Source: a virus
Lineage: Duplodnaviria > Caudoviricetes
Length of the DNA: 60,317 bases
Direction: 5' to 3' (one strand)
Virus record (IMG/VR): IMGVR_UViG_3300050120_000105
Coordinates: 1 to 60,317 of that record
Below, one piece after another: positions 3,991-57,579 of the stretch (positions are counted from its first letter, which is position 1; each line of letters starts with the position of its first letter). The position numbers and the translations under genes are program-made. The notes beneath the pieces are model-generated. The model was not told the origin of the DNA, did no database searches, and saw nothing but the letters and a program-made list of their open reading frames with translations.

Positions 3991-6900
3991 CTACGCCGCC
4001 TTCTCCAACCCGACTGGATCGTTGTCGTTGGAGGATGGATCGATGTCGCGCTTGAGCAGGAAGTTGAGTTTGCTGAATCCGCTCGGGATCGTATAGGTGC
4101 AACTCGTCGCGCAGAAATTGAAGGTCGCACCCTCGCCGTTCTGATAGGCATAGTAAGACGGAAATAGCGGCTGCGGCAGCGAAGAGATATTCAACGCGCC
4201 CGTGGCGGGAACGTTCGCGCCATTGTTGTTCCAATTTCCGCCGTTGAGTCGAACGCCAAGATAGCTACCGGGAGCCCACGCAAAGCCCACCGTATCTCCC
4301 GCCGCAGGGGCGGTTGACGCAAAAGTCATAGTGGCGACTGTGCCTTGAACGGTGGATTGAATGCTTGCGAAATTGGACTGAACTGCGAATCCGGACAGGT
4401 ACCAATAGCCCGGAGGGGTCAGGGGATCGTTGAAGTTTCTTGCAAAAAGCAATGGCTGATTGCCTTGAGTAAATCCGCTGTCGTAATGAAGTTCGAAATA
4501 GAACGGACCTCCTCCGGACTTGCTCTTGGTGATACGAACCGTTTGAACGGCGCTCCCGGCGCCAGTGTGCAGGATGGTAAGATTGCCGTTTGACAGCGTG
4601 TAGATGCCCGATCCGATCGTAGTCGGGTCAATTGTCACGACGCTGTTGCAGATGATGTCCACGACGAAGGTGCCCGAAACGCCGTGCGAGTTCGTGACCT
4701 GAATTGAAATCGGATAGGTCGTCAGGTTCGCGAGCGTCCCGGCAAGAACAAGCTCGTTCGATCCGTTGATCGAAAATAGACTGCCGGGATTGGAAATCAG
4801 TGTGAACGTCGTCGTCCCGGACCCGTCGATGTTCGGCTCCTGCGCCGTCATCGGGCCAGTCAGCACCGTGCCTGACGATGTGGTGGCAGGAATCTGTCCG
4901 CCGTCCCATCCCGCCACCCAATTCATGTTGATGCCGGTAGGTGCCGCAGCAAAGAATGAAGATAAGCCTGCACTGATCAATGCAGGCATATTCGGTTCGT
5001 CTGTAACCACGCCACCTGGGGGCGGAAACTGGAACGGAGGGGTGTTCACTTGACTAGGCAACGTGACATAGGGCGCTGTCGTCCATGCCGTCCAGCCAAC
5101 CCAAACGTCGGGATTGGCGCTGATATAACCTAACTGTGCTTCAGTTTCGGTAATCATTGAGGTTACGCCGGATATTCCGAACTCCCCGAGGAAAAGCTTC
5201 AACCCATTGGCCCGCGCGTACTCGGTCGCGTCGATCAAGGAAACAGCGCCAACGCCGGTCGCGGATGGATATGGGCTACTACCGCTGCCTCCAGCGTCGA
5301 GATAGCTGTGAACTTCATAAACTATTTTATTGAGTGGATCGGTGAGGAGCGATCCAACGCTGTTGAGCGTGGTAGAAAACAGGCTTGCCTTTGAGTAGCT
5401 ACCACCAACTTCGGCAAATATATATCCAGTGAAAGACGTGTTAGTCCGGACGCTAGTGATTATCGCCTGAGTTGCCGTTGCCATCACGGACGCCGTGACG
5501 AAATTCGGCTCATTCATCACGTCAAGAATTATGTTCGGTGATAGAGGCGCGTATCGCGCCATCAATTTGGTTTCGAAGTCAGCAATAGCAGCGTTGCTAT
5601 ACCCCGCCGTTCCAACAAGAGCAGAAAATGTCCCCGTTGTCGCCCCGGACGACGGCGTCCCGTTTGGGACCGGGATCGTGAACGTCGTGCCGTTGATGAT
5701 GGTGATGGCCCCGGCATAGGTCGGCGTCGGATTGGTGGTCGCCGTGGCGCCAAGTGTGAGCGTGGCCCCGGCATTGAGGATCGTGGTGTCGGCGACGGTG
5801 CAGGTCGCCGTGGTGCCGGTGACCGACACCGAGGAAATATCAATCGTAACCAGCGTCCCGCCGTAATCGTGAACATCAAGAACGGCTACCATGCCGCTGT
5901 TGACGGCGTCATTGACGGCGCTATCGAGCGCATCAAGGCCCGACGCTCCACCGAACGAAAGAGTGTTGGAGAGCGCACCGAACAACCTTGGTTGAACTCG
6001 CTCACGCTTGAACGGAAGGCGCGCGATGTTCATGCCACGATTATGATAGTACGCCATGTAAGAGTCATTGTAGACGCCAGCGAGAGGGGCGCCCTGACTG
6101 ACCGGATAGATCGCTCCGGGATTGGTAGATTCCATTCCCGAGAGATTCGCTCCAGTCCATGGCGGCGGGATCGCGACACTGGGCGCTATGACTGCACCAG
6201 TCGTAATCTGAACTGCCGGAGGATTGATCCAACCGCCGTTGTTGGTCGCGGCTATATTGAGCAAGCCGGCTTCGGCAGGCGTATACGTGAAATAGCCAAT
6301 GGCGTTATTTCCGGCAGGCAGCGTCACGCTGGGCGGAGTGACGGTCCCTCCAGCGCTCGCTCCGTTGTCGGCTCTTGTCGCCCCTGGCGTGATCGTGACG
6401 CCGCCCGAAGGAATCGTCCCGTTGTAGCGAACGGCGAAATTATTGGTGACCTGGCTTCCGACCGTTCCGATATTGACGATCTGTAATTTGGGCGCGTCAG
6501 GATTGGCGGTCGTGGTGACGATGGTCGGAAGATCGACGCGATAGGCTAGCGGCTGCGGACCCGTGTAGCCGGAAAATTGCTCCAGCACCGTCATCAACGT
6601 TGATTGCAAACCCGCCGATGAGAAATTAGCTACGCCCGGACTGGCTACGGATGACGGCCCCAGATAGAAAGCCATTCCCGGATTGAAGTTGGGACCAGCG
6701 CCCCATGCAAACACAGGGACCTGGTTCGATTGCGCCAGAGCGATCGTGTTGTATGCAGCCGTGTTCCACGCCGCGTAATTGTCATTGCCGCCGTTAGCTA
6801 GCTGATCATTGCTCCACCCGATTTCACCGAGGATCGCATTGACGTTGTGCGACGCTTTCCACGGCAGGAAACCATTGAGCCGCGTTTCGCCAATCGTGGC

Positions 6901-9710: not shown

Positions 9711-10628
9711 TCACGGAGTGCCCCAGTAAGTCTGCTGGTTGTTTTCTATCGAGGTTCGAGACCCGGAAGGTATTCCTCCGGCGAGATCATAGGATATGTA
9801 CTCGCCGATTTCTCCGCTCCAGGAGGCATCACCATCCCCGTACCCGAGATAAAGATTTGCCGCCGTCAGCGTTTGAGCATTCGTGTTGGTTCCTGCCGTC
9901 GTTCGGTTGACCCAAAATGCGATAGCACCAGTTGATGAATTGTATTGAACTTCAACCACGGCTGCGACCGATGCCGTGAGGGGGTTTGATGTTAGTGAAG
10001 TGTCAATAGTGGCTGTCGCGGCCTTCAATAAGTGAAGAGTTTGCGGAGCGGTAGAGTCCACCCGCCACTCTAGTGCTGCGCTCACTGAGCCAGAAGCTAT
10101 TCCCTGGGCCGCGGATGTCGCTGTGTTTAGCACCACGGCGTTCTGGTACAAGGTGTTGACCGGATTAGCGGTTATGGTCGTCGTCAGGTAAGTCGGAGTG
10201 GCCGAAACAAACAGCGGAGCTGGTTGTCCGTTAAGCGTTGTGACGGCTCCAGACTGATAAATGATCGGAGCCCCGGCCGCTGCACTGGTCGCATTGTCTC
10301 CAGCGCCACATTGATCATACCAAGTTGTGACCTTGCATGTCGTACCGCTGCAAAATGTCGAGAGCGCCGACGTGTTCAAAACGTTGGACGAAAAACCGAT
10401 GTTTGAAGTCGTGCTGTCGCTGGACCGCGTGACCTGCATCGCGTTGCCAGCATAAGAGGTCAGCAATTGGCGCGTGCTGTAACAGACTTTAACGCCAGTC
10501 GATATTCCATCGAGTGGGAGCGTAACCGCGCTGATCCCCACCTGCTGAACCGACTGCCACCACGCCCATGCGCCGATCGAGGGAAAGCAAAGCGCAGCCG
10601 CAACGATGGAAGCAAAGAGCCGTTTCAC
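9711..10628 (-). CDS. Secreted ConA/arabinofuranosidase-B-like lectin domain protein
   Basis: Signal peptide; YSTRQL..Y.G, VTTWYDQ, WSGEIGE motifs; GTG 10628 coupled to upstream stop. Confidence 0.7.
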   Translation of the reverse strand: MKRLFASIVAAALCFPSIGAWAWWQSVQQVGISAVTLPLDGISTGVKVCYSTRQLLTSYAGNAMQVTRSSDSTTSNIGFSSNVLNTSALSTFCSGTTCKVTTWYDQCGAGDNATSAAAGAPIIYQSGAVTTLNGQPAPLFVSATPTYLTTTITANPVNTLYQNAVVLNTATSAAQGIASGSVSAALEWRVDSTAPQTLHLLKAATATIDTSLTSNPLTASVAAVVEVQYNSSTGAIAFWVNRTTAGTNTNAQTLTAANLYLGYGDGDASWSGEIGEYISYDLAGGIPSGSRTSIENNQQTYWGTP

Positions 10629-11260
10629 AGCGAATAGCCCCAAGCCTTGACAGATACGAGACCACCCGTTCCAGGGGCACCCGAGACGACGGCGATGCTG
10701 GTACTGACCGCACTTGCTGGAATGCAGGGGGAGAAGATTTGCTCATCGACTCCAAGTCCTGCCGTATTGGCCGGAACCCATAGAATAGAACTCATCGTTG
10801 CGGTGATAACTCCGGTCACGGTATCAGTGACATTGGTGTTGGCGGTGGCGTTGGCGCGGATCGAATAGCCACAAATGTAAGTAGTGTGGCCCGTAACATT
10901 CGTGAGTGTTGCCGTGGTCGCCGCCGTGGTGCCCGTAGCTGATGCCGTGATCGGAACAGCGCCGACCGGATACGGAAGCTGCCCGACCGTGCCAATGGTG
11001 TTGGTGCCTGTAGGCGTTGCCGCCGTATTCTGCACCGCGAACGTTCCGGCATTGGTGACCGCGCCGCCGCCCCCGCCCCCGCCAGAACCAGACGTGCAAA
11101 GATGTCCCGTTGAATCAATCGTTAGATAGCCCGAGTTATTAGGATAACTTGCGGTCCCGCATCCTCCCGGCAAGAGGGTGGGAGAAGATTGCGCGTTCGC
11201 CTGATGCCACGATAGCGCAACCAACAGCGCAAAGACCCACGTCGCAATAATTCTGCGCAT
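10625..11260 (-). CDS. Secreted Thr/Gly-rich putative virion or decoration protein
   Basis: ATG 11260 with GGAG RBS; signal peptide ending ANA. Confidence 0.7.
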   Translation of the reverse strand: MRRIIATWVFALLVALSWHQANAQSSPTLLPGGCGTASYPNNSGYLTIDSTGHLCTSGSGGGGGGGAVTNAGTFAVQNTAATPTGTNTIGTVGQLPYPVGAVPITASATGTTAATTATLTNVTGHTTYICGYSIRANATANTNVTDTVTGVITATMSSILWVPANTAGLGVDEQIFSPCIPASAVSTSIAVVSGAPGTGGLVSVKAWGYSL

Positions 11261-45597: not shown

Positions 45598-46333
45598 GGA
45601 TAGTTCAACTTTGATTCCTCGTTATTAGCATCGGCGGTGTCGGCTAAGTTCCGGATGTTTCGGCTTCGACCTTCGCTTTCGGCTCGGACCGCATGCGTTT
45701 CGCCGCCGCCGCCTCTTCAGCGCGATCGGCTGCGCTCTTGACATGCGACTTGCGGATGCCGTCGATGTCTTCAGTCGGGAAGCGTCCAGTATCGTCGAAG
45801 TCTTCACGCTTGATCGGCTTGATCGTTGGGGCGGGCTCGTCGACTTCCTCCGCAACCGGATTGCCGTCAGTGTCGCGATAGACGCGAACCGGCAAGCCTC
45901 CGAGTTTGAGCACGATCTCGCCATGCGGCGGAACGATGCTTTTGAGAAATTCGACAGCCTCTTCGCGCGCGGCGAGATCGACGGCGAACTTGCCGAGCGC
46001 CATGAACAGCGGCGGTTCTTCGGCCATGCCGATCGCGTGCATATAGGTATCGAGCAGCGCTTCGGCCTGTTGGCGCTTGGCGGGATCTTCCGCACGAAGC
46101 GCGATCAGTTTTCGAATTGTCTTGGTATCGAAGCCGAGGGCCTTGCCGCGCTGGAAGATTTCCTTTTGTTGTTCGCTCAGTTGCTTCTTGCGGTCGATGA
46201 CGCCCTCGATCTCTTCGATCAGGCCGCGCAATTCCTTGCCGCTCTTGGTGCCCTTGCCGATGCTCATAACTTCATCCTTCAGAACTTAGCCGCTGCATTA
46301 CCGTTTCGTCGTGACGCTAAAGTTGTACTGTCC
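45598..46333 (-). mobile_element. Inverted-repeat cassette A (ends 45598-45651 and 46282-46333); cargo GapR-like gene
   Basis: GGATAGTTCAACTT..GGCTAAGTTC / GAACTTAGCC..AAGTTGTACTGTCC. Confidence 0.8.
45644..46267 (-). CDS. GapR/DUF2312-family nucleoid-associated protein with C-terminal extension
   Basis: LRGLIEEIE, KEIF..GK..GFDTKTIRKLIALR, LLDTYMHAIGM. Confidence 0.85.
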   Translation of the reverse strand: MSIGKGTKSGKELRGLIEEIEGVIDRKKQLSEQQKEIFQRGKALGFDTKTIRKLIALRAEDPAKRQQAEALLDTYMHAIGMAEEPPLFMALGKFAVDLAAREEAVEFLKSIVPPHGEIVLKLGGLPVRVYRDTDGNPVAEEVDEPAPTIKPIKREDFDDTGRFPTEDIDGIRKSHVKSAADRAEEAAAAKRMRSEPKAKVEAETSGT

Positions 46334-46344
46334 ATATCTGTCTC

Positions 46345-46563
46345 CTACCGCGGCACGATCTTGTATCCAGCCTGATGCAGCCCATCCAACACAGCCCGCA
46401 CTGGAATGCTGCTTTCGCTTAGCAATCGTCCCGACCAACGATAAGGCACCATCGACAGCGCACACGCGATCACTTCATCCGGATCAAGCAACGGCCCGGC
46501 GCGAGGCTTGCGGGCTTCGAGCGGCATGCGGTCGATGCTGACGGGGAGCGTGGAGGGTTTCAT
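46345..46563 (-). CDS. hypothetical protein
   Basis: Coupled; ends AGYKIVPR. Confidence 0.55.
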   Translation of the reverse strand: MKPSTLPVSIDRMPLEARKPRAGPLLDPDEVIACALSMVPYRWSGRLLSESSIPVRAVLDGLHQAGYKIVPR

Positions 46564-46871
46564 TCGGCGGGCTCCAGCAGATCAGCCATCCCTAGCGATT
46601 CCCGCTTCCGCTGCTTGATGCCACGCCGTCGTATCGGCGCGTCGTATTGATTGTGGCAGCGCTGGCACCACGCACGCAGGTTTTCATCCGAACAATTCTC
46701 GGGGACGTGATCGAGATGCGCGACCGTCAGCACAATCTTTGAACCGTCGCGGATGCTGTAATTCTGGGCTCCGCAATCCTCGCATTTGTTGCCCGCGCGC
46801 GCCCGAATTCGCAGACTGATTTGCTTCCAGTCTTTCGGGTATCGATCCTTATTTTCGGGGCGAATGGGCAT
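46560..46871 (-). CDS. HNH-like endonuclease domain protein
   Basis: CEDCG, VLTVAHLDH.PENC, NL.AWCQRCHN. Confidence 0.8.
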   Translation of the reverse strand: MPIRPENKDRYPKDWKQISLRIRARAGNKCEDCGAQNYSIRDGSKIVLTVAHLDHVPENCSDENLRAWCQRCHNQYDAPIRRRGIKQRKRESLGMADLLEPAE

Positions 46872-47332
46872 TATACAGCCACTCCCGCGCGCATCTTGTC
46901 GAGCGCAGATCGCCCCGGCATAGGATCGCCGAAAAATCCTCCAGTCAGCCCGCGCTCACGGATGCGGTCGCGAAGCTCCTGGTCGAACACCAGCTTCGAT
47001 TTTGGCGTGAGCGCGATATGGCCGGCATAGTCGATCGTGACCGGACACGGCTTTCCCGGCAGCGGCGCCGGTTTCGGCTTTCGCCTGGGGAGATCCTCGA
47101 ATTCGATCATCAGCGCCACTTCGGCCTTGATGGCGAGCCGTCGCGCCTTGCGTTCGTCGACCCGGCGCTGGGTGCGGACTTCCGACATCATCGACTGGCA
47201 GGTCGAGCGCGGATGGCCGACCTTGCTCACGATATCGTCCCACGGGACGCGGCGACCTTCCAGCGAACAGGTGTCCACGGTGTCGGTCATGTATTTGAGC
47301 TGTTCCGCCGTCCATCGGTTTTCGTAACGCAT
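46871..47332 (-). CDS. hypothetical protein, N-terminal Myb/HTH-like
   Basis: RWTAEQ...W..I pattern; FFGDPMPGRSAL tail. Confidence 0.65.
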   Translation of the reverse strand: MRYENRWTAEQLKYMTDTVDTCSLEGRRVPWDDIVSKVGHPRSTCQSMMSEVRTQRRVDERKARRLAIKAEVALMIEFEDLPRRKPKPAPLPGKPCPVTIDYAGHIALTPKSKLVFDQELRDRIRERGLTGGFFGDPMPGRSALDKMRAGVAV

Positions 47333-47386
47333 TTACTTTTCCTTCCCTGTTATTTCGTTACGATCACCGTGCCCGGCGAAGCCTCT

Positions 47387-47419
47387 CTACGCGGCGCGAA
47401 GCCGCTATGCGTAGCGCTG
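47387..47419 (+). mobile_element. 33-bp palindromic mini-element copy that truncates a gene
   Basis: Exact copy; supplies the TAG at 47405-47407. Confidence 0.85.
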
Positions 47420-47704
47420 TGGCGAAGACGGGTCGCGCAGCGCCATCGCGGCGCCATCGACCAGAAAATTCGCCAGTTGGTCTTTTGTGATTTCGAATTC
47501 GAAAAACACGCCGCCAGCCGATTGAACCTTGACCACGAAGGTATTGCGCAGCGGCTCGGTCAGGTAGAACAGCTTTGCCTTCGGGTAGGCGTAAGGCTCA
47601 CGCGGCGCGTGGGCGTTGGTGAGGATGGTCTTATTTGGACAGTTCAACTTTGATTCCTCGTTATGAGCAGCGGCGGTGTCGGCTAAGTTCTTCGTGCCGG
47701 TCAC
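47405..47704 (-). CDS. hypothetical protein altered at both ends by insertions
   Basis: N-terminus reads through the cassette-B end; C-terminus cut by the 33-bp element. Confidence 0.55.
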   Translation of the reverse strand: MTGTKNLADTAAAHNEESKLNCPNKTILTNAHAPREPYAYPKAKLFYLTEPLRNTFVVKVQSAGGVFFEFEITKDQLANFLVDGAAMALRDPSSPQRYA

Positions 47705-48508
47705 AGTTCAAGTGCCTCTTGCTTTGCGGGCTTCGGCGGTTCGATGAACAAGTCAGGTCGCGCCAGCGCGTCGGTGATGCGGCGGCAGGCGATGTCGAAA
47801 TACTTGGGCTCAATCTCGATGCCGATGAACTTTCGGCCGAGCTTGACGGCGGCAACGCCGGTTGTGCCGGATCCCATGAAGGGGTCGAGGATGGTTTCGC
47901 CGGCATCGGAAAAAAGTTCTATCCACTCTCCGATAAGTTCGACCGGCTTTTGTGTGGGATGTTCGCCACGCGGTGACGGATAGGACCAGACAGCGCGCGA
48001 TCCTCCACCGTTCCAGCGTTTTGTTTCGTCTGCTCTATGGAAAATCGCAACGGCTTCCCATCCCGTCGCAGGCCTGTCGCCAGTAAACTGCGGCGCTCCG
48101 TTCGGCTTAACCCAAATTCCAAATCTCACCAGGGGAAGCCCGCTCGCCTCAGCGACTCCGATATGCCGCCAGTCGCATGTTAGGATGACCCACCTCCGCG
48201 CGATCGAAATCATCAACTCACACAATGTCAGAAAGTCTTCGCGGCTTAAGGATTCGAAATGGATACTGGCGACATTGTCCGCACCGCCGTTTTTTCCGAT
48301 ACGAGTTCGCGCGCCCGCATGAGTAACGGCGTCATAAGGCGGATCAGTCACCACGGCATCGACCTTGCCCAGTGTCGGCAGAATCTCCCGGCAGTCGCCG
48401 AGATAAAGCGTCACGCCTTCCGCCAGATGTTCGACACGATTCATTTTCTGCCTTCAGAACTTAGCCGCTGCCTTACCGTTTCGTCGTGACGCTAAAGTTG
48501 TACTATCC
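47637..48508 (-). mobile_element. Inverted-repeat cassette B (ends 47637-47690 and 48457-48508); cargo DNA methylase
   Basis: Both ends ~95% identical to the corresponding ends of cassette A. Confidence 0.8.
47701..48444 (-). CDS. N4/N6 DNA methyltransferase (beta class)
   Basis: VTDPPY, HPTQKP, LDPFMGSGTT. Confidence 0.92.
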   Translation of the reverse strand: MNRVEHLAEGVTLYLGDCREILPTLGKVDAVVTDPPYDAVTHAGARTRIGKNGGADNVASIHFESLSREDFLTLCELMISIARRWVILTCDWRHIGVAEASGLPLVRFGIWVKPNGAPQFTGDRPATGWEAVAIFHRADETKRWNGGGSRAVWSYPSPRGEHPTQKPVELIGEWIELFSDAGETILDPFMGSGTTGVAAVKLGRKFIGIEIEPKYFDIACRRITDALARPDLFIEPPKPAKQEALEL

Positions 48509-48530
48509 ATATCCAACCTAACGGCGAGCA

Positions 48531-48755
48531 TCATTGCGGCCTCCGCATCTTGCAATCGCATAGCCATTCCATGTGGACGACGTACTGATCATGATGCGGC
48601 ATCTGGACTCGCGGCCGAAGGATGATCCAGCCGAGGCGCAGCCAATCCAGGGCCTGCCAGCGCGGCACGTAATGGATGATGCGGTCCTTCACCGAACGAA
48701 CTCTGCTGATGGCGAAATCTCTCGCGCATGTGCGTAGCTTTTTGCGGGAAGCCAT
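48531..48755 (-). CDS. hypothetical protein (start uncertain)
   Basis: ORF in operon. Confidence 0.45.
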   Translation of the reverse strand: MASRKKLRTCARDFAISRVRSVKDRIIHYVPRWQALDWLRLGWIILRPRVQMPHHDQYVVHMEWLCDCKMRRPQ

Positions 48756-48886
48756 TTATTGGACCGATTGAGCGGAATATGCCGCGAAGGTGCGCGCGGT
48801 CGCGATTTGGCGAATGTCGCTTCCGGCCAGCCCTTGATCCGATCGGCGTTGCGTCGCGCTCCGCGATATTCTGATGCGTGTTTCAT
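48689..48886 (-). CDS. hypothetical basic protein
   Basis: ATGA coupling. Confidence 0.45.
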   Translation of the reverse strand: MKHASEYRGARRNADRIKGWPEATFAKSRPRAPSRHIPLNRSNKWLPAKSYAHAREISPSAEFVR

Positions 48887-50010
48887 GCCGCTTCGTCCTC
48901 TGCGTTTGGCTGTGCCTTGCGCACGGGACTCGCCGTGAACCGGATCGCGTCGTCAGGCTTGGAAAGGGCTTCGCGGCAGCCAGGCGGTATCCAGAACGGC
49001 GCCAGTGGCTGGGCTCCCTTCAACCAGACCAGCCACATGTACGCGGTTGCGGTAGATCCCTCCGGGTCCCATCGCCCCTTGCAGAGATTGACGCGCTCGG
49101 CAAAGAACGCGATCAGCGTCGGCGGTGTGTCCTTGAAGATGCGTTCATAGCGACCGATCGAATCGAGCCATTGCACGCGCATGAACATCGCAATGCCGGT
49201 GCCGACCAGATCGAGCGCTTTCAGCACAAAGGCCTCGCCGAGATCGCCGAAGGGCGGGTTGGTGATGATCCAGTCCGCGCCTCGGAGTATTTCGGGACCG
49301 AGGAAGTCGACAACGCGGTCGCCATAACCATAATCGTGAATGTCGGAGGCGATCACCGAGCGGAAATATTCCCGCAACACTTCGGCCATGTGGCCATCGC
49401 CGCATGCCGGTTCCCACGCGTGCTGCCATTTGCAATGGCCGCGACGTTCGAGGTGCGGGAAAACATGTTCGATCAGCGCGCGCGTAGCCCAGGGCGGCGT
49501 CGGGAAGTGGTCTAGGCTGTCGTCGGGTTCCTGCCGTGAGCCCATGACGGCGCGGGCACTGTTGATGGCGGCCTCGCCGATCCGCATCAGATCCATGGTG
49601 ACGCGGGTCTGGCCGGCTTCCATTTCGTCGCGCCACGCGCCGACGCGCGCCTCAAACTCTGCCGGGGGCACCGCAGCCATCTTTTGGGCATGAGCCGAAA
49701 ACTTATGAGAGACGCCGATATCCTCCAGTTTGATCGGAGAAACCCCTTCCGGTTCGGCAGTGGTTTTGGCTGGAGGGCGGCCGCCCTTATGGAGCCCAAT
49801 GGTCTCTTTTTGCGCGGCAATCATCTGGCCGAATCGGCGCTCGGCGTGAAAACGAATCTCGGCGGCGTCGATTTCGAGGCTACGATCACCGGCGCGCCGA
49901 GCGTATTCCTTCATCGCCACGGCCTTGTCGAGGATCGACTTGACGTCGTCGACGGCCTTGGCCTCGGCGAGCATGATGCGGGCTTGATCGTAGGGGACGA
50001 GATCCGTCAT
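48883..50010 (-). CDS. Adenine-type DNA methyltransferase with N-terminal helical/HTH domain
   Basis: DHFPTPPWAT, WEPACGDGHM, IITNPPF. Confidence 0.85.
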   Translation of the reverse strand: MTDLVPYDQARIMLAEAKAVDDVKSILDKAVAMKEYARRAGDRSLEIDAAEIRFHAERRFGQMIAAQKETIGLHKGGRPPAKTTAEPEGVSPIKLEDIGVSHKFSAHAQKMAAVPPAEFEARVGAWRDEMEAGQTRVTMDLMRIGEAAINSARAVMGSRQEPDDSLDHFPTPPWATRALIEHVFPHLERRGHCKWQHAWEPACGDGHMAEVLREYFRSVIASDIHDYGYGDRVVDFLGPEILRGADWIITNPPFGDLGEAFVLKALDLVGTGIAMFMRVQWLDSIGRYERIFKDTPPTLIAFFAERVNLCKGRWDPEGSTATAYMWLVWLKGAQPLAPFWIPPGCREALSKPDDAIRFTASPVRKAQPNAEDEAA

Positions 50011-50036
50011 CTAGCGAACCTCGCGACAGGTCATTT

Positions 50037-50420
50037 TCAGCCGGGAGGCAGCGCCTCCCGATAGATTTCCTTGCCGGGCACCAAATCCCAGATGTTCCGG
50101 CAGAATGGTTCGCCGTGCGTCATGTCCATCAACCACTTCATGGTGACGCCACGATCCCAAAACCACTCGCCGCGCAGATGGCCTTCGCGCAATTGCTGAT
50201 GCACCAGCGGTTCGACATCCGGCGGAGCCGCGACGACCCCAATAAGTTCGAGTTTCCGCGCGCTGCCAACTTGGAGATCGGAAAGCCGGTGCCAATGGTC
50301 GCGTGAGTATCCGACCTTGATCGCGTCGGCCTCCGCATCGCGGATGAAGTAAACTGAGCCGAGTTCGGTTTCCGCGATCCAGAATTCTCGCAGAGAGACC
50401 AATCGAGTACGCAGGAACAT
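50037..50420 (-). CDS. GIY-YIG-like (T5orf172/Mug113) domain protein
   Basis: VYFI, IKVGYS, RLSDLQ, E..VH, GEWF. Confidence 0.75.
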   Translation of the reverse strand: MFLRTRLVSLREFWIAETELGSVYFIRDAEADAIKVGYSRDHWHRLSDLQVGSARKLELIGVVAAPPDVEPLVHQQLREGHLRGEWFWDRGVTMKWLMDMTHGEPFCRNIWDLVPGKEIYREALPPG

Positions 50421-50742
50421 AACACCCTCGCTGGCTGGCGATACAATCTAAGCGTTTAGCACAGAATGCGGCGATCTTCATGATTAAGGTTGCACTCATA
50501 GGTTTGCACTCGCTCGGGATAAGAACCGTTCGACGACGCACGCAAAACTCATTTACCGGGGACGCAACACAACGCGCAGAAACCGCTCAAAAAAAGCAGT
50601 CAGAAAGGACGTGAGGACCTTCGAAACCGGACGACGTTGGTCGCTTCGGACCGGCGATCGGCCCTGGTGCGCAGCACGTAGCGCAGCGCAAAGTAGGCGA
50701 TGGCGAGGATGGTGAAGGCGGCATAGCCGTAAAGGATCGTGG

Positions 50743-51045
50743 TCATGCGGCCTCCGCGAAACGCTCTGAGGCTTCAAGAATCGACTGGATCAAGCGCCAG
50801 CCGCTTTCAGATGGTCTAAAGAACGGCCCGCGCGGAGATTCTCCGGGCACTTTCCTGTTCCAGATTTCGATCAGTTCACGCCGCCACAGCGGCACCACTG
50901 CGCGGCGCGAAGCCGCTATGCGCAGCGCCGTTGCCTCTCGCTGATCGCGAGTCAGGGTAATCTGACCGCCATTGGAGCAGCAGATCGCGAGATGTTTCAA
51001 TGTCGCGATCTGCCGGTTTGAGAGACGTTCGCCTTTCACAGGCAT
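50743..51045 (-). CDS. hypothetical protein with in-frame 33-bp element
   Basis: Contains TALRIAASRRAV derived from the element. Confidence 0.65.
   Translation of the reverse strand: MPVKGERLSNRQIATLKHLAICCSNGGQITLTRDQREATALRIAASRRAVVPLWRRELIEIWNRKVPGESPRGPFFRPSESGWRLIQSILEASERFAEAA
50898..50930 (+). mobile_element. 33-bp palindromic mini-element copy (in-frame insertion)
   Basis: CTGCGCGGCGCGAAGCCGCTATGCGCAGCGCCG. Confidence 0.85.
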
Positions 51046-51602
51046 TCTCCGATAATTTCACGCTTGAGGGCGGCAACCTTGTCTTCGTCCGTTTGAACCT
51101 CGCCGATCAATGCAACCAGCCACCAGCGTTCGCCTTTCCATTTCGGCGGAATGAACGTCGCGTGCAGACCTTGCGCGGTGCAGATCCGCAGCGGTCCCTT
51201 GATGGTTTCGATGGTGCCCGGGCCAACGGGATCGTTCTTTCCACCATTCGCCGCGCGACCATTCTTGTCGGAACGCCAGAAGGCAATCATCGCGCCTTCT
51301 TGCTGCAGCTCCGCAAAACGCTTTTGCTGTTGCTCTGGCATCTTCCTTGCAAAATTCGGAATCGTGGCCAACCAATATTCCTTGGAGCCGGAGCCGTAGC
51401 CGTAGCCGGAGCCGTCGCCGGAGCCGGAGCCGGAGCCGGAGCCGTCGCCGGAGCCGTAGCCGTCGCCGGAGCCGTAGCCGTAGCCGTAGCCGGAGCCGGA
51501 GCCGTAGCCGTAGCCGGAGCCGTCGCCGGAGCCGGAGCCGTCGCCGGAGCCGTTCAAAAATGAGTGCGGGACTTCGCCCCGCACGAGTCTCGCTTCGCTC
51601 AT
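51036..51602 (-). CDS. Gly-(Ser/Tyr/Asp) repeat protein
   Basis: ATG 51602 coupled; GSGDGSGYGYG tract. Confidence 0.75.
   Translation of the reverse strand: MSEARLVRGEVPHSFLNGSGDGSGSGDGSGYGYGSGSGYGYGYGSGDGYGSGDGSGSGSGSGDGSGYGYGSGSKEYWLATIPNFARKMPEQQQKRFAELQQEGAMIAFWRSDKNGRAANGGKNDPVGPGTIETIKGPLRICTAQGLHATFIPPKWKGERWWLVALIGEVQTDEDKVAALKREIIGECL
51383..51552. repeat. Hexamer microsatellite (GGCTCC/GGCTAC/GGCGAC on minus strand)
   Basis: ~28 tandem 6-bp units. Confidence 0.9.
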
Positions 51603-51925
51603 TTCCATGGTGCGCTTTCCCATGCTGCGACAGCGGCAGTCGTGACCTCGGCAACCGAGGTAATGTCGCGAAGCTCGATATCGGCGGCCGGCCCGACGCG
51701 CGCGCCTTTGACCGGCCCCATGTTGGCGAGGCCCATGAAGCCCTTGTTTTCTGCCGGCCAATAGATGCAGTTACGCGCCGCGCGAAGCTTGATGGTCTCA
51801 CCGTCGGTATCGAGGGCGTAACCAAAGAACACGCCTCTGTGACTTGTTGTAACTAGAACTGCCCTCTCTTCTTTCTTCAAATGTGCCGCCAAGTGTTCCT
51901 CCCGTTTGATTAAAGATGAGCCCAT
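51599..51925 (-). CDS. Conserved phage protein (DUF6948-like), usual partner of GYG-repeat proteins
   Basis: VLVTTSHRGVFFG, ARNCIYW, GLA..GP. Confidence 0.7.
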   Translation of the reverse strand: MGSSLIKREEHLAAHLKKEERAVLVTTSHRGVFFGYALDTDGETIKLRAARNCIYWPAENKGFMGLANMGPVKGARVGPAADIELRDITSVAEVTTAAVAAWESAPWK

Positions 51926-52539
51926 GCTCTCCGTGCCCGGATCGCAGAGACGGTTTCCATGCTGATCAAGTATTGTGAAGCGATTTCGCGACGCGTCCGC
52001 TTGTCAGACCTGATGGCCACGACCTGTTCAGGCTGCAGTTTTGCGGTATGAACGCGCTCACCTCTGTTGTGACGATCCTTCGCAATGCAATCGCGATTGT
52101 TGTCGACCCTGGTACCGGCAAAGAGATGGCTTGGCCGACAACAGGCTGGGTTATCGCAGGAGTGACAGGCGCAGAGACCTGCGGCCAACTTCCCTCTTGT
52201 GATTAGATATGCGGCCTGATGCGCTTGCCGTGGAAATCCTTTCTCAGAATAGCGTGCGTAGCCATCCTTTGAGCGAGCCGAAGGATATTCCCAACAACCG
52301 GCCTTGCCAGCTTGATCAAGTAAAAACGCAGCCATTCTCGGATGGCGACGACCATAACAGCCGCAGGATTTGGTGTGCCCGCTCCGTAGACCGGACGTAA
52401 GGGCAATCACCACTACCGCGCCGCAGTCGCATAGACATTTCCAGCGCTGCTGTGCGTGGACGTTTGAATCTAGCCGCTCAATTACGAGCAATCGTGCAAA
52501 ACGCTGCCCTACAAGATCAAACCGCTGCCCGCTGGTCAT
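51910..52539 (-). CDS. HNH homing endonuclease
   Basis: WKCLCDCG, TKSCGC, CWEY, CHSCDNPACCRPSHL..GT..DN. Confidence 0.85.
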   Translation of the reverse strand: MTSGQRFDLVGQRFARLLVIERLDSNVHAQQRWKCLCDCGAVVVIALTSGLRSGHTKSCGCYGRRHPRMAAFLLDQAGKAGCWEYPSARSKDGYARYSEKGFPRQAHQAAYLITRGKLAAGLCACHSCDNPACCRPSHLFAGTRVDNNRDCIAKDRHNRGERVHTAKLQPEQVVAIRSDKRTRREIASQYLISMETVSAIRARRAWAHL

Positions 52540-52548
52540 GCGGCGCTC

Positions 52549-52827
52549 CTATCGTCGGTCAGGCAGCCAAAGATTGATGACGGCTTGGATAGTGCGCGCG
52601 GTAGGCTCCTGCTCGCCTGAAATCTGATAAGCGGCGGCGCGTACCGAGCAACCGACAAGGGCCGCGAGTTCTTCTGCGGTTTTGTTCGGCCACATCCCTT
52701 TGCAAGCTTTACCGAACCACGAACTGCAAATTCTTGCATCGCCCTGCAGGATGTTTCGCTCGATTTTCGCGGCGCCCGCGATCTCGCGCTCGTAAACCGT
52801 ACGCATGAACAAACCCCTGATACGCAA
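52549..52827 (-). CDS. CII-like HTH regulator
   Basis: WPNKTAEELAALVGCSVRAA..QISGE; downstream of cro. Confidence 0.55.
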   Translation of the reverse strand: MRIRGLFMRTVYEREIAGAAKIERNILQGDARICSSWFGKACKGMWPNKTAEELAALVGCSVRAAAYQISGEQEPTARTIQAVINLWLPDRR

Positions 52828-52957
52828 TGCAACAAATCAACTGCCGTTAACCCAACTGAGAGAAAAATTTTCCGTGACACGAAACCGCCATACGGACCAT
52901 GCTGCGGCAAAACGCGCAGGGGGCGGAAATGGGGAAGATTATTCGATTTCCGGGGCA

Positions 52958-53170
52958 TCAGGCGCGCACCTCGGTTTCCAGGGGATACAAATCGGGGCGC
53001 AGTTCATGCCTGGAGACGCCGGAGACGCGCTCGACCACCAGCACGCGAAGCGGAGGAACCTCATTCCATTGTGAAACGGCCTGCGCAGTCACACCGACGG
53101 CCCGCGCAAACTTGGCCTGGCCGCCGACATTTTCGACCGCTCGTTTGAGGGCTTCTTTCTTGTCATCCAT
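52958..53170 (-). CDS. cro: Cro-like (YdaS family) repressor
   Basis: GGQAKFARAVGVTAQAVSQW, VSRHELRPDLY. Confidence 0.88.
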   Translation of the reverse strand: MDDKKEALKRAVENVGGQAKFARAVGVTAQAVSQWNEVPPLRVLVVERVSGVSRHELRPDLYPLETEVRA

Positions 53171-53181
53171 AGTCGTCACCT

Positions 53182-53243
53182 CAAGCATGGCTTTTACCTC
53201 AAAGTCAAGTTTTGCTTCATTGTTTGCCTAAAGCCGGGCTTTA
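53182..53243. promoter_or_regulatory. Three putative operators AAG(C/T)-N3-GCTT between cro and cI
   Basis: CAAGCATGGCTTT 53182, CAAGTTTTGCTTC 53206, TAAAGCCGGGCTTTA 53229; TATAAT at 53242. Confidence 0.7.
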
Positions 53244-53253
53244 TAATGCGGAA

Positions 53254-53574
53254 ATGACTTTAGGAAATCGCATCAAGGCGGCCCGCGAGCGCCTTCGGCC
53301 AAAGCCGACTCAGGCCGAGATAGGTGCCCACTTCGGCGTCACCGACAAAGCTGTCTCCGGGTGGGAACGAGACGAGGCAATCCCGGAACTGGATAAGATC
53401 GCTAAGTTGTCGAGATTACTCAGGATTCCAGTTATTTGGCTGCTCGAAGGGACGGACGATCCACCTCCCCCCGATTCGCTGGAAAAGGACATCGAACAGC
53501 TCCAGCCCCATGAACGCGCCGTGGTGCGCACCATGGTCGACGCTTTCAGCAAAAACCGGGATACCGTCGCCTAA
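53254..53574 (+). CDS. cI: CI-like XRE repressor without peptidase domain
   Basis: LGNRIKAAR, TQAEIG..FGVTDKAVSGWE; divergent from cro; probably leaderless ATG. Confidence 0.85.
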   Translation: MTLGNRIKAARERLRPKPTQAEIGAHFGVTDKAVSGWERDEAIPELDKIAKLSRLLRIPVIWLLEGTDDPPPPDSLEKDIEQLQPHERAVVRTMVDAFSKNRDTVA

Positions 53575-53612
53575 TCCACAGCTTTCGTGGCCGGCCAGAT
53601 ATTTTTTGATAT

Positions 53613-53638
53613 TTGACTAAAGCAACAAGCTATGCTTG
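53613..53638 (+). promoter_or_regulatory. Early rightward promoter/operator
   Basis: TTGACT followed by palindrome CAAGCTATGCTTG. Confidence 0.6.
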
Positions 53639-53671
53639 AGTGCTCCCACACCAACAGGGAGCCGCCACCCC

Positions 53672-53998
53672 ATGACAACCACCTTCCAGACAGAACCCCG
53701 CCCTTCCCCGCTCTACCTCGTCCTCTGTGGCCAGCACATCGACGAATACGCAGCCGAGCGCGACGTCAACGACATGGATCGCGAGACAACGATCCGCGAT
53801 ATCGCAGCCGGCGAATTCGAAACGCTCTCGCGCGTGATCGAGATCGGCACCGGCGCCGATGTCACCAAGGACTTCGCCAGACAGGTCATGACGATCTGGG
53901 CTGGGCGAGGCGAGACGCTTTCTTACCGTCAATATGAATTCGTCGAGATCCACGTCGGTACGCGCGCGGCGCGGTCGTTTCTGCGGAGGGCTGCGTGA
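53672..53998 (+). CDS. hypothetical protein
   Basis: GGGAG RBS, ATG 53672. Confidence 0.65.
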   Translation: MTTTFQTEPRPSPLYLVLCGQHIDEYAAERDVNDMDRETTIRDIAAGEFETLSRVIEIGTGADVTKDFARQVMTIWAGRGETLSYRQYEFVEIHVGTRAARSFLRRAA

Positions 53999-54255
53999 TG
54001 GTCGCGATCGGCGGAAAGCCTCGCAAGGCAAAGCTTCCCTCGCAGCCGCAAGTCGTCGTGCAGCGCGCCGCTTTCACCAACGAATTCGCGCTGTTCAGTG
54101 CCGACGACAAAGGCATGACGATCATCACATGGATCGGCGACCCGAACGCCGCGACCAAATTCAATTCGAAATATGAAGCCAAATCCCGCGTGCGCGACAT
54201 GCATGACGTTCCGGACTCGCGCGTGTTCAAGGTTTTGCAGAAGGAGACTGTGTGA
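53995..54255 (+). CDS. hypothetical protein
   Basis: Coupled ORF. Confidence 0.6.
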   Translation: MMVAIGGKPRKAKLPSQPQVVVQRAAFTNEFALFSADDKGMTIITWIGDPNAATKFNSKYEAKSRVRDMHDVPDSRVFKVLQKETV

Positions 54256-55034
54256 TGATGATGTTAGACCGCGCTGAAATCCCCGCAACCGACCGCCTTG
54301 TCAGCACTGCCGACAACCAGCCCTCGCGCATCGACTTCGCCGTCGAAGCCTATGACGAACTGCGCACGTACCTGAAATCGCATCCCGTTGTTATGAGCCA
54401 GGACGATGCCCAGGCCGGCGCCGCCGTAAACGAGCGCACGCTTGTCGCTTTGAACGAAGCCCGCGCCGAACGCGAGACCAAAACCCGCCCGTTCCGCGAC
54501 CGGCTGAATGCGATCTTCGATGCCTACGCGCTGGTCAAGGACAAGGGCACGCTGGAAACCGCCCGCGGCGAGCTGCGCAAGCGGCTGACAAAATACGCCA
54601 ACGATATCGAGGCCAAGCGCATCGCCGAGGTCGAGCGGTTGCGCAAGGAAGCCGAAGAAGCCGAACGGATTGCCCGCGAAGCCGAAGCCGCCGAACGCGA
54701 GGCGATCGACGATGCCGAACAGGGCGTCGAGAGCGACGTCGGCGAGGCAATCCAGCAGGCGGATCAGGCGTTCACGGACTTCCGGCGCGCGGACAAGACG
54801 GCTGCGATCGCCGCCAAGAACGTGCCGGTGCGGTTCAAGAGCGTGCTGGGAGGCAATTCGCGCGGCATGCGGACGGTCGAGGTTTTGGTGATCGAGGATG
54901 TCGCCAAGGTGATCAGGATTTTAGGGATGACCGACAAGATCAGGGACGCGATTTTGTCCAGCGCCCGCGACTACCGCCGCGAATACGACGAGCTTCCCGC
55001 CGGCATCACCGCAACCTTTGAGAGGACTTTGTAA
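54252..55034 (+). CDS. Coiled-coil early protein (recombination-region)
   Basis: AAGGAG RBS; long EAR-rich helix; LPAGI tail. Confidence 0.7.
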   Translation: MMMMLDRAEIPATDRLVSTADNQPSRIDFAVEAYDELRTYLKSHPVVMSQDDAQAGAAVNERTLVALNEARAERETKTRPFRDRLNAIFDAYALVKDKGTLETARGELRKRLTKYANDIEAKRIAEVERLRKEAEEAERIAREAEAAEREAIDDAEQGVESDVGEAIQQADQAFTDFRRADKTAAIAAKNVPVRFKSVLGGNSRGMRTVEVLVIEDVAKVIRILGMTDKIRDAILSSARDYRREYDELPAGITATFERTL

Positions 55035-55529
55035 ATGAACACGTCAGCAGCACTTCAACAGCCGCGCTTTGAGCAAGGCACCATCACCGTCCAGAACATC
55101 TATCCCTCGAAAGGCCAAGGCAAGTCGGCCCACATCAAGGATTCGGACGGTATGTTGTTCGGTATCTGGCCGGACAAGCTTGGCCTCGTCCAGGTCGGAG
55201 GAACTTACGAGATCGAGTTTTCCGCCAGCACCAAGAACGGCACCACGTACCGCGATATCAAGCAACTGCACATGGTGGAAAAGCCGCAGCCGCAGCCGGC
55301 GCGTTCATTGTCGTCGGCCGCGGCGCCGGCGCCGCAGACAGAGAAGCCGCAGAACGGCGGATACTACCGGCCGACAGCGCCGCAGGATTCCGAGCGCATG
55401 TTCTGCTGCAGTACGCTCAACGCCTTCATCCAGACCGGCCGCGTTGAATGTCATCGCGAGCATCTGACGATAGCGATCAACGAGCTGCGCGCGGCCTATG
55501 CGGCGACGTTCGGCGCCGACGACCACTGA
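55035..55529 (+). CDS. Possible ssDNA-binding OB-fold protein
   Basis: Beta-rich N-terminus, P/Q linker, acidic end. Confidence 0.5.
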   Translation: MNTSAALQQPRFEQGTITVQNIYPSKGQGKSAHIKDSDGMLFGIWPDKLGLVQVGGTYEIEFSASTKNGTTYRDIKQLHMVEKPQPQPARSLSSAAAPAPQTEKPQNGGYYRPTAPQDSERMFCCSTLNAFIQTGRVECHREHLTIAINELRAAYAATFGADDH

Positions 55530-55639
55530 CACCCGTTACCTCGCCAAAGGCGTAGCGGCTCCATGGCGAGGGAGGCGGCGGCGGGTTTTTAAGCATCCTC
55601 GTCGCCGCCAACTAATTCAAAGGCATCACAGGGGACACC

Positions 55640-55834
55640 ATGAACATCCAACTCAAACCGGAAACCCGCCGTTTCATCGAGGATTTTGTCGCGCACGAAA
55701 TCACCACGCTGACCGCACTCGATCCGTTCGGCATCGACGATCCCTGCCCGGGAAGCCCGGACGGCCATTACCAGTTGTGGGACGGGCCGCGCACGCTGGT
55801 ATGCGCGCATTGCGCGAAGGTGCTGTGGTCATGA
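55640..55834 (+). CDS. small Zn-finger-like protein
   Basis: CPGSPDGH...CAHC. Confidence 0.6.
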   Translation: MNIQLKPETRRFIEDFVAHEITTLTALDPFGIDDPCPGSPDGHYQLWDGPRTLVCAHCAKVLWS

Positions 55835-56064
55835 ACTCCTTCCTGATCGACGGCCCGCTGATGTCCACCTTCGATCGCCGCAAGGCGATGATCGAGCGCA
55901 TGGCGAAAGACCTGGTCAAATTCGACGCCGCGCAGAACGAAGCCGACGCGATCCGATCGCTGATGGCGCGGGGCTACTCGCCGTTCGCCGTGCTGCGCTA
56001 TGTCGACGATGCGCGGCAGGTGGCGTTCCAGAGCATTGTTGCGAGGGAGATGGCGAAGTCGTGA
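55831..56064 (+). CDS. hypothetical protein
   Basis: ATGA coupling at 55831. Confidence 0.65.
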   Translation: MNSFLIDGPLMSTFDRRKAMIERMAKDLVKFDAAQNEADAIRSLMARGYSPFAVLRYVDDARQVAFQSIVAREMAKS

Positions 56065-56152
56065 GGCCAGAGGGATGGATAGTACAACTTGAGCGTCACG
56101 GTTTAAACACCAGCGCAGCGGCTAAGTTCGATCCGCAGCTAGGAGCTACAAG

Positions 56153-56329
56153 ATGGGAAAGCGCGCGTTGATCGACATCGCCGGCGAACTCAAAGGCGAG
56201 ACCGACAAAGCTTTTCGAATTTTCGACGGCAAAACGACTGAATGGGTGCCGAAGTCGCAAGTCGAGCAGAACCCTGACGGCACTTTCACAATGCCAGAAT
56301 GGCTGGCACAGGATAAAGGATTCATCTGA
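56153..56329 (+). CDS. Small conserved phage protein (58 aa, not in ORF track)
   Basis: AGGAG RBS; ETDKA...WVPKSQ...MPEWLA.DKG. Confidence 0.75.
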   Translation: MGKRALIDIAGELKGETDKAFRIFDGKTTEWVPKSQVEQNPDGTFTMPEWLAQDKGFI

Positions 56330-56574
56330 TGGCACACGTTTACGAAGGACAACCGGATGGCCGGCAGGCCGACACGGCGATTGAAGTCAGCCGCTTTCGC
56401 CCGAAGTATCGAGCGTTGAGCAACGAAGAAAAGTCGCTGCACGACGCAATCAAGGACGAAGCCGCCGTGCTCGAAACCTTGTTCGCCAAGGTCAAGCCAG
56501 GTCGCTACAACTCGCTAGCAATCACGTCGCTCGAACAGTCAATTATGTGGATCGTCAAGGAATTGACGTCGTAA
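56329..56574 (+). CDS. Acb2/Tad1-like cyclic-nucleotide sponge (anti-CBASS candidate)
   Basis: YRALSNEE...K...E.L...PGRYNSLAITSLEQSIMW resembles the Acb2 pattern YRDLSQEE...PGRW..GKT.IQ.GMM. Confidence 0.7.
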   Translation: MAHVYEGQPDGRQADTAIEVSRFRPKYRALSNEEKSLHDAIKDEAAVLETLFAKVKPGRYNSLAITSLEQSIMWIVKELTS

Positions 56575-56657
56575 CCAAACGCGGCGCTTAGAACTTAGCC
56601 GCTGAGTCGGTGAAGCGTCGTCGCGTTTGAGTTGTACTATCCAAATCGGACTTCCAA

Positions 56658-57094
56658 TGATCAGACCGCAACGCATCGTTCACGATTCGAAACCCGGCGA
56701 TTTACTCAAACGCGCGACCGCGCCGACCGCGACAGCGCGAACCTCCGACCATGGAGATGCCGATTATTTGGCCCTTATCAGGCAAATGCCCTGCCTTTCC
56801 TGCGGCATGGAACTGTCTGAGGCCGCTCACCTACGTCTTTCAAGTGCAGCGTATGGCAAGGCGAGCGGCCTCGGGAAGAAGCCTCATGACAAGTGGGCGC
56901 TTTCATTATGCAGCCAATGCCATCGCCTGGCGAAAACAGCCCAACATAACCGCAACGAAGCCGAGTTTTGGGCAAGCCTGGGCATCAATCCCCTCAGTTG
57001 CGCCGTTGAACTTTATGCGGCGCGCGGCGATCCGGTCTCGATGCGGATGATCGTCGTGCTGACGATTGCGACGCGTTGGAAACGGGATGGATAG
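56658..57094 (+). CDS. DUF968/HNH-like Zn-binding protein
   Basis: YLALIRQMPCLSCG, EAAHL, KPHD..ALSLC..CH, QH; stop codon supplied by cassette D end. Confidence 0.75.
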
Positions 57095-57473
57095 TACAAC
57101 TTGAGCGTGAGTGACTGAGTATCGGCGATAGAGGCTAAGTTCGGAAGACAGCAAAAAGGAAACGACACGATGAAAATGACGTTACAGAGCACGACCAAGA
57201 TCGTCGAATTGAGATCACGCAGTGGTGGGGTGATGCAGGCCAGGATATGGGAGGGCACAACCGAGAATGGTGTGCCGGTCCACGCCTTCATCACACGGGT
57301 CGCGTGCCACAAGGATGAGGATAACAGCGAGCTTGAGCGCGACCTTCGCGAGCACGTCGCGCCATCCGATAATATTGGCAAAGCCTATGATTTACGCTTC
57401 TTCATCGACTAGCCGGAGGACGAACTTAGCCGCTCAGTCAGTGCAGCGTCGTGTCGGTAAAGTTGAACTATCC
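57089..57473 (+). mobile_element. Inverted-repeat cassette D (ends 57089-57142 and 57422-57473)
   Basis: GGATAGTACAACTT..GGCTAAGTTC / GAACTTAGCC..AAGTTGAACTATCC. Confidence 0.8.
57170..57412 (+). CDS. hypothetical protein (cargo of cassette D)
   Basis: AAGGA RBS; ARIWEG.T..GVPVHAFITRV. Confidence 0.7.
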   Translation: MKMTLQSTTKIVELRSRSGGVMQARIWEGTTENGVPVHAFITRVACHKDEDNSELERDLREHVAPSDNIGKAYDLRFFID

Positions 57474-57579
57474 AAATGAACGCATGTGGATTGTTTAGTT
57501 TGTGCGCAGGGAAAAACTGGAATCGACGTAAAATGATGGATGTACTTTTGAACACGCGCCCGGAGCGCTGAACCGCTAG

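Follow-up and report, generated by a model that had tools for sequence, protein, structure and literature searches.

Gene cassettes between inverted two-box ends in soil phages: anatomy, cargo turnover, and candidate routes of exchange

The virus record IMGVR_UViG_3300050120_000105, hereafter the window, is a complete virus record of 60,317 bp that we assign to the P22-like podoviruses by its P22 portal and coat proteins and its terminase. Between positions 45598 and 57473, it carries four gene cassettes, A to D, each bounded by two inverted ends composed of a 14-bp outer box and a 10-bp inner box. The original prediction, made from the letters of the sequence, had proposed eight such ends arranged as four inward-facing pairs, and an exact-match scan recovers precisely these (45598-46333, 47637-48508, 56077-56642, and 57089-57473), with no further ends in the genome. 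The outer box, GGAYAGTWCAACTY, is found in eight exact copies, four forward and four reverse, and the inner box, GGCTAAGTTC, likewise in eight exact copies, each located 28-30 nt inside an outer box. When mismatches are tolerated, the outer box gives 10 matches with at most two mismatches (1.00 expected, maximum of 4 in 100 shuffles) and the inner box 9 matches with at most one mismatch (1.87 expected), and the end pattern read backwards, as a control, has no match in the window. The eight ends alternate strictly in orientation, and we refer to those lying upstream and downstream of the enclosed genes, or cargo, as U-type and D-type ends, respectively. The features of the locus are the following:

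45598..45651, + strand: D-type end of cassette A (outer box 45598-45611, inner box 45642-45651), with the stop TAG of cargo A (45644-45646) inside the inner box
45644..46267, - strand: cargo A, a 207-aa GapR-like DNA-binding protein (Pfam GapR_DNA-bd, E 1.7e-20)
46282..46333, - strand: U-type end of cassette A, beginning 11 nt past the stop of the preceding open reading frame (ORF); the cargo starts 14 nt past its inner box
47637..47690, + strand: D-type end of cassette B, 94% identical to the D-type end of cassette A (family D3); ORF 47405-47704 reads through it
47701..48444, - strand: cargo B, a 247-aa N6/N4 DNA methyltransferase (Pfam N6_N4_Mtase, E 6.3e-29; phrog_67, E 4.2e-63)
48457..48508, - strand: U-type end of cassette B, 94% identical to the U-type end of cassette A (family D2)
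56077..56129, + strand: U-type end of cassette C, beginning 12 nt past the stop of the 188-aa gene 55498-56064
56153..56329, + strand: cargo C1, a 58-aa protein, function unassigned (phrog_8389, E 5.7e-9; no Pfam match)
56329..56574, + strand: cargo C2, an 81-aa Acb2/Tad1-like protein (Pfam Acb2_Tad1_hairpin, E 7.1e-13)
56591..56642, - strand: D-type end of cassette C; homologous D-type ends precede the same HNH gene in contigs L025, L030, and L032
56657..57094, + strand: DUF968-type HNH endonuclease gene, not cargo (Pfam DUF968, E 7.4e-7; phrog_131 HNH)
57089..57142, + strand: U-type end of cassette D, by its box matches
57170..57412, + strand: cargo D, an 80-aa protein, function unassigned, from a widespread small phage protein family
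57422..57473, - strand: D-type end of cassette D, by its box matches; the whole unit 57083-57480 is absent in relatives

The ends follow the formula GGATA-N3-CAACTT, then 27-30 nt, then GGCTAAGTTC, over a total length of 52-54 bp, which places the two boxes about four helical turns apart, and this spacing of 27-30 nt is kept in 37 of the 38 ends collected from all sources. Their G+C content is 46-54%, against 57.6% for the window, and the boxes are AT-rich and near-invariant. Since the spacers of U-type and D-type ends have distinct consensus sequences, the element is polar, and the predicted picture of discrete, modular units with polar ends is supported. AT directly precedes all four upstream ends of the window and AAAT directly follows three of the four downstream ends, both as originally noted, but the AT rule does not extend to other phages. 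The fit between ends and genes is tight: the upstream outer box is found 11, 22, and 12 nt past the stop of the preceding ORF in cassettes A, B, and C, and in cassette D the stop TAG of the HNH gene, which fills the segment between cassettes C and D, lies within that box. Past the upstream inner box, the ribosome-binding site begins after 2-6 nt and the cargo after 12-27 nt, and the downstream inner box lies 0-16 nt past the cargo stop, or around it in cassette A. The first 20 nt of the U-type end of cassette C and 5 nt of its flank are exactly those of cassette D (25 nt; family D9). All four cargos are co-oriented with the surrounding operon, and the flanks of the four cassettes show neither a target-site duplication nor any common repeat, which bears out two further points of the original prediction. 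A companion proposal, that excision at ATG^CC restores coupled reading frames, holds, as a long ORF, for one of the four cassettes. Downstream of cassette B, ORF 47405-47704 is open across the entire D-type end and has no ATG of its own beyond it; it could start at a TTG within the outer box, located 7 nt past GAGGA. The D-type end of cassette A, of the same sequence as that of cassette B, opens an ORF of only seven codons, the stop of which falls on the ATGA of the following gene.

To collect further ends, we ran exact-pattern scans of viral contigs, genomes, and metagenomes, and then built a profile from the ends. The exact pattern was matched in seven stretches of six other viral contigs, in three genomic contigs (a Bradyrhizobium prophage being the one convincing case), and in 19 metagenome stretches. 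The profile yields 24 inward-facing pairs, or 21 distinct ones after merging identical contigs, three pairs having a degenerate partner end. The ends of a pair are 317-883 bp apart and enclose one or two genes; in none of the 21 distinct pairs do both ends have the same orientation, and the cargo always runs from the U-type to the D-type end. Seven profile matches are unpaired, of which two are located at contig edges, two are weak and probably due to chance, one is a partial remnant, and two are true solo ends. The same ends thus surround other cargo, as the original prediction had anticipated: the 27 cargo proteins are mutually unrelated (0 of 351 pairs alike), most of them have no match to a family of known function, and among the others are two unrelated methyltransferases, GapR, Acb2, and DUF551. 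Of five other phage records compared with the window, four are similar to it at the nucleotide level in the ends alone. In four temperate phages (G001-G004; loci L043-L055), the cassettes are found 0.5-4.5 kb from a tyrosine integrase gene, the largest distance (4.5 kb, in G002) being counted across the ends of the provirus record. Outside this set, a 71-nt end queried by blastn has no match in plasmid and GenBank phage collections, the 6.8-Mb genome of the lysogen has the ends only as the prophage pair, and among 151 genomes of its genus, Bradyrhizobium, the ends are confined to the lysogen (none of the 150 others). An autonomous copy, with the same ends around a transposase or recombinase, was absent from the viral, genome, and metagenome pattern scans, the plasmids, and the 151 Bradyrhizobium genomes.

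Comparison of these loci reveals that the cargo turns over between fixed ends. One locus is represented by four allele types (L014, L034, and L042, which are equivalent; L031 and L036, likewise; L033; and L038), plus the downstream side of L040. Its flanks and both ends are 80-96% identical across types, its four cargos are unrelated, and at either inner box the homology ends precisely with the edge that faces the cargo. In the same way, L025 has the 188-aa and HNH genes that flank cassette C in the window around a different cargo, a 169-aa protein. End variants have also spread horizontally: the second cassette of G001 and the cassette of G004 have 47 consecutive identical nt in their downstream ends and 32 identical nt in a truncated upstream end, in the midst of unrelated flanks and cargo, and their downstream ends differ solely at outer-box positions 6-8. 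Empty-site alleles exist for cassettes C and D. In L110, the 188-aa and HNH genes overlap directly, which corresponds to an empty site for cassette C. Cassette D is wholly absent, with no remnant of an end, in the metagenome contig L030, and it is also missing, cassette C being kept, in two runs of another study, in which position 57082 is joined to 57481 with 11 other letters in between. The junction is therefore not clean, the cassette and 13 nt being replaced by 11 other letters. A slot emptied down to two inner boxes 0-30 nt apart was searched for in viral contigs and gave a single match, an unrelated terminator hairpin. The breakpoints thus fall on the cargo-facing edge of the inner box, in the outer box or directly after it, and at the outer limit, and the mosaic ends (upstream for C and D, downstream for G001 and G004) indicate that they occur at several places within the conserved stretches. 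None of the observations that the original prediction had named as refuting it was made: relatives differ in both cargo and occupancy, the motif occurs for the most part in pairs, and the end compared with plasmids and GenBank phages is unmatched there.

Regarding the cargo itself, Pfam and PHROG matches agree with the predicted identities (GapR-like, N4/N6 methylase, a 58-aa protein with an Acb2-like one, and a protein of unassigned function), the Acb2_Tad1_hairpin family being annotated as an anti-CBASS/Thoeris signal sponge. A search with cargo D finds nine relatives besides the protein of the window, and among 47 viral loci that encode relatives of it, none has the ends, so that cargo comes from the ordinary phage gene pool. 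On a 59-kb viral contig (L056, 4001-4739), relatives of cargo D (79% identical) and of the Acb2-like gene (76% identity at the nucleotide level) are separated by about 320 bp and have opposite orientations, likewise without ends.

We then looked for an enzyme that could act on the ends. Within the window, there is no match to Phage_integrase, Resolvase, or rve, and the 69 ORFs compared with Pfam belong to no recombinase or transposase family, in line with the original prediction, only part of the transposase families being covered. Five complete phages with cassettes have almost no proteins in common, and none is common to at least four of the five by blastp at E 1e-3, a comparison so insensitive that even the integrases fail to cluster. 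At the level of families, Phage_integrase is matched in four of the five phages, the window being the exception, and a tyrosine integrase was rejected as the shared enzyme; the T5orf172 nuclease MUG113, present in only three of the five, was rejected as well; Resolvase and rve have no match in any of the five. The DUF968 HNH protein is no better a candidate as cognate nuclease, being matched in two of the five phages only and having relatives at 30 viral loci of which 28 are without nearby ends. The 307-aa protein beside cassette D has a poor predicted model (pLDDT 0.51), a weak winged-helix likeness, and no sequence match in the PDB.

The ends were also inspected for folding and for expression signals. 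An attC-like hairpin formed by a single end was rejected, as ends fold no better than shuffled sequences (z-scores of 0.31 to 1.52), and so was a conserved RNA structure, alignment folding giving no pairs in 17 upstream and 20 downstream ends; Rfam returned no match for the ends. No sigma-70-type promoter is found at any end, and the ends have no terminator in common, the D-type end of cassette C alone having a weak terminator-like site.

Several features elsewhere in the window are worth describing. A 15-kb region compared by megablast with GenBank phages gave zero matches, and a search of viral contigs with two flanking proteins returned no close relative. Two products of the late region, one of 1525 aa with a GH5 cellulase domain (3991-8568) and one of 310 aa with an arabinofuranosidase-like domain (9711-10643), are probably host-surface depolymerases. 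ORF 51036-51761 holds nine overlapping GGAGCC/GTAGCC-type repeats with 12/18-nt spacing (51366-51575), a tract at which the Logan contigs of the source run break. A 33-bp palindromic mini-element occurs at 47387-47419 and 50898-50932, its copies forming direct-repeat family D6. Contigs of run X6, from a related phage, lack it (joints 47386->47420 and 50897->50933), which makes it a separate insertion/deletion polymorphism. Finally, the 103-aa ORF 46560-46871 is absent from a related phage of run X5, in which 46563 is joined to 46896 with 21 other letters in between; the borders of this gene-sized indel are not the two-box ends.

The feature is real, its cassette nature is well supported, and we found no description of such elements, that is, of this inverted-site or repeat-bounded type of cassette, in the literature searched, in which the outer-box 14-mers were likewise unmatched. 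We propose that the end pairs bound exchangeable gene slots, which are swapped by recombination between like ends, a reading that in our view is about evenly poised. In such a slot, an upstream end is followed by one or two genes that have a ribosome-binding site each but no promoter, and then by a downstream end that is an inverted copy of the same element; slots lie at gene junctions within the early operons of soil phages, some of them Bradyrhizobium prophages. This anatomy, the turnover of cargo between fixed ends, the occupied and empty alleles, and the horizontal spread of end variants are shown by the comparisons above, whereas we infer each step of the exchange, as follows. Cargo would be gained, lost, or replaced when two phage genomes present in one cell recombine, the upstream end pairing with an upstream end and the downstream end with a downstream end, with crossovers at the conserved boxes. 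Because the layout is inverted, recombination within a single genome could not delete the cargo. The varied positions of the breakpoints fit recombination wherever two cassettes are alike, as homology-driven exchange predicts, and it seems slightly more likely that the exchange relies on the single-strand-annealing/exonuclease modules of the phages themselves than on a site-specific recombinase reading both boxes. Phage recombinases of the annealing/exonuclease type are reported to shuffle diverged phage DNA (PMC3945230). In the window, an exonuclease-like gene is found two genes upstream of cassette C, and in other phages Rad52_Rad22, ERF, YqaJ, and NinB genes, among others, lie within 3 kb of the cassettes.

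Several observations weigh against exchangeable slots of this kind. Homology-driven exchange by itself leaves the strict spacing unexplained, and the boxes, at 10-14 bp, are short substrates for homologous recombination. The model is also silent on how a gene first enters between two ends and on why both ends are inverted copies of one element. There are, in addition, the two true solo ends, which are D-type ends that precede the HNH gene in L030 and L032 and were confirmed by unfiltered scoring with the model. Moreover, contigs L107 and L108, which are without ends, have ORFs inserted between the 188-aa and HNH genes; these insertions constitute a second, end-free route for adding genes at the same junction, and as this junction varies in relatives without ends, the ends are not required for turnover there. 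The comparisons were made on assembled contigs, in which no recombination event was seen directly and no inversion or circle joint was found, the latter result having no weight since contigs drop rare variants. At the L107 and L108 insertions (2150-2500 and 2250-2500, respectively; cf. window 56040-56070), the extra ORFs are coupled by overlapping stop/start codons (ATGA, GTGA) and flanked by 9-nt direct repeats, AAGTCGTGA in L108 and GAGCAAGCC in L107.

The strict spacing, kept together with near-invariant boxes, speaks for a protein that reads the site. A bolder version of the slot reading, which we consider tentatively possible, is the following: a dedicated recombination system would read the two-box site of about 54 bp and load and unload promoterless accessory and counter-defence genes into inverted-site slots common to otherwise unrelated soil phages, thereby forming a phage counterpart of integrons and dif modules with a new site type and a new or co-opted host enzyme. 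Integron cassettes have one attC hairpin site and need an adjacent IntI integrase, attI, and the Pc promoter. The phage cassettes resemble them in being tightly packed, promoterless, and co-oriented, with highly diverse cargo and generic border sequences, and differ from them by two inverted, non-folding ends per cassette and by the lack of a tyrosine recombinase match in the window. The likeness with the dif modules of Acinetobacter plasmids lies in the layout (PMC6449649, PMC13141974): there, accessory units lie between inverted copies of one asymmetric site, the segments alternate along the replicon, related backbones have varied accessory modules, no dedicated enzyme gene is present on the replicon, and movement is thought to proceed via recombination between like sites on two molecules. 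However, the pdif XerC/XerD site is 28 bp long, with two 11-bp arms and a 6-bp spacer, and resembles the chromosomal dif (PMC6449649, PMC13141974), whereas the site described here measures 52-54 bp, with boxes of 14 and 10 bp set 27-30 nt apart, and has nothing like it in the host genome beyond the prophage pair. The replicons are, in addition, phages of soil alphaproteobacteria, and inversions and deletions have been demonstrated for the plasmid modules, whereas the slots are known from sequence comparison.

A different possibility, which we find doubtful, is that the ends are cis-acting expression or insulation signals bound by a DNA-binding protein of the host or the phage, that this function accounts for their conservation, and that the shuffling is a by-product, as for the PeSL (promoter-early stem-loop) cassettes of T4-type phages. 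A fixed spacing of about four turns and near-invariant AT-rich boxes are indeed typical of protein-binding sites, the upstream inner box abuts the ribosome-binding site of the cargo and the downstream end closely follows its stop, in L030 and L032 a D-type end persists alone ahead of the HNH gene, and four of the five phages carry their cassettes close to the integrase gene, in the accessory ("moron") part of the genome. PeSLs show that regulatory repeats are able to drive shuffling (PMC2839356): these cassettes combine a sigma-70 promoter and a terminator hairpin, their direct repeats are able to loop out mini-circles, and exchange occurs by recombination between the repeats. In both systems, short conserved intergenic repeats are found in phage accessory regions at the breakpoints of insertions, deletions, and replacements (PMC2839356), but the ends described here are inverted and have neither promoter nor hairpin. 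That no sigma-70-type promoter and no terminator common to all ends was found speaks against an expression signal, and with a ribosome-binding site 2-6 nt away, the inner box is too close to it to act as the -10 element of the cargo. Besides, no DNA-binding protein is common to the phages, the motif is absent from host genomes, and an opposite orientation at the two borders would not be expected of such a signal. Overall, the proposed slots would work like dif modules and PeSL cassettes, yet the element fails the defining sequence features of both.

The original prediction was partly supported: its cassettes are, and its transposon part is not. It had proposed non-autonomous transposons resembling mobile insertion cassettes, in which a transposase supplied in trans by the host, a prophage, or a co-infecting phage would move ends and cargo as one unit, a scenario that we now judge unlikely. 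Terminal inverted repeats with sharp outer limits and different left and right ends would suit it, and so would units wholly present or absent, without end remnant, at sites C and D and identical end variants in phages with unrelated flanks; we also take the two-box, fixed-spacing layout to resemble transposase binding sites. Non-autonomous derivatives of insertion sequences (IS) have the same repeats as an autonomous IS present in their hosts, and they duplicate the target. The phage cassettes are similar to such derivatives and to mobile insertion cassettes in carrying passenger genes between terminal inverted repeats with no transposase gene, but have neither a target duplication nor an autonomous relative: among the 21 distinct cassettes, none exceeds 883 bp or encloses an enzyme, and neither the 6.8-Mb lysogen genome, nor the 150 other Bradyrhizobium genomes, nor the plasmid collection has a further copy. 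Furthermore, what distinguishes empty from occupied alleles is a replacement of letters on both sides and not a clean insertion, the same cargo is never found at two sites, and allelic loci keep the ends in the backbone and exchange the cargo, the reverse of what is expected if ends and cargo travel together.

An action at the level of RNA or single-stranded DNA, in which base pairing of the upstream end with its inverted downstream counterpart would close a stem around the cargo, as a processing or stabilizing signal or as a giant attC-like recombination substrate, appears highly improbable: the inner boxes with their preceding CAGC could give a helix of 10-14 bp and the outer boxes one of up to 14 bp, as follows from any inverted repeat, but within cassettes the outer boxes of the two ends differ at positions 4, 7, or 8 with no compensatory change and their spacers are unrelated, which makes selection for a long-range stem unlikely, single ends, alignments, and Rfam are all negative for a fold, and solo ends exist. 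Invertible segments (invertons or shufflons), in which an invertase would flip the cargo to switch its expression, are scarcely credible even though each gene unit is flanked by inverted sites, given that the cargo runs from U-type to D-type in 21 of 21 distinct pairs, with no reversed pair and with the four cargos of the window co-oriented with their operon, that the Resolvase/invertase family is matched in none of the five phages, and, a weaker point as contigs drop rare variants, that strand-changing joints are absent from contigs.

If the slots bounded by like ends are real exchange units, they would provide soil phages with a defined route to trade small accessory genes. Otherwise unrelated phages would then be trading, among others, an Acb2-type anti-CBASS sponge, two DNA methyltransferases, and a GapR-like protein, and the question raised is that of the protein that recognizes boxes of 14 and 10 bp at a distance of four helical turns. 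The ends could moreover be used as bait, anything located between two of them being a candidate accessory or counter-defence gene, and inverted-site modules, so far known from Acinetobacter plasmids, would be extended to phages.

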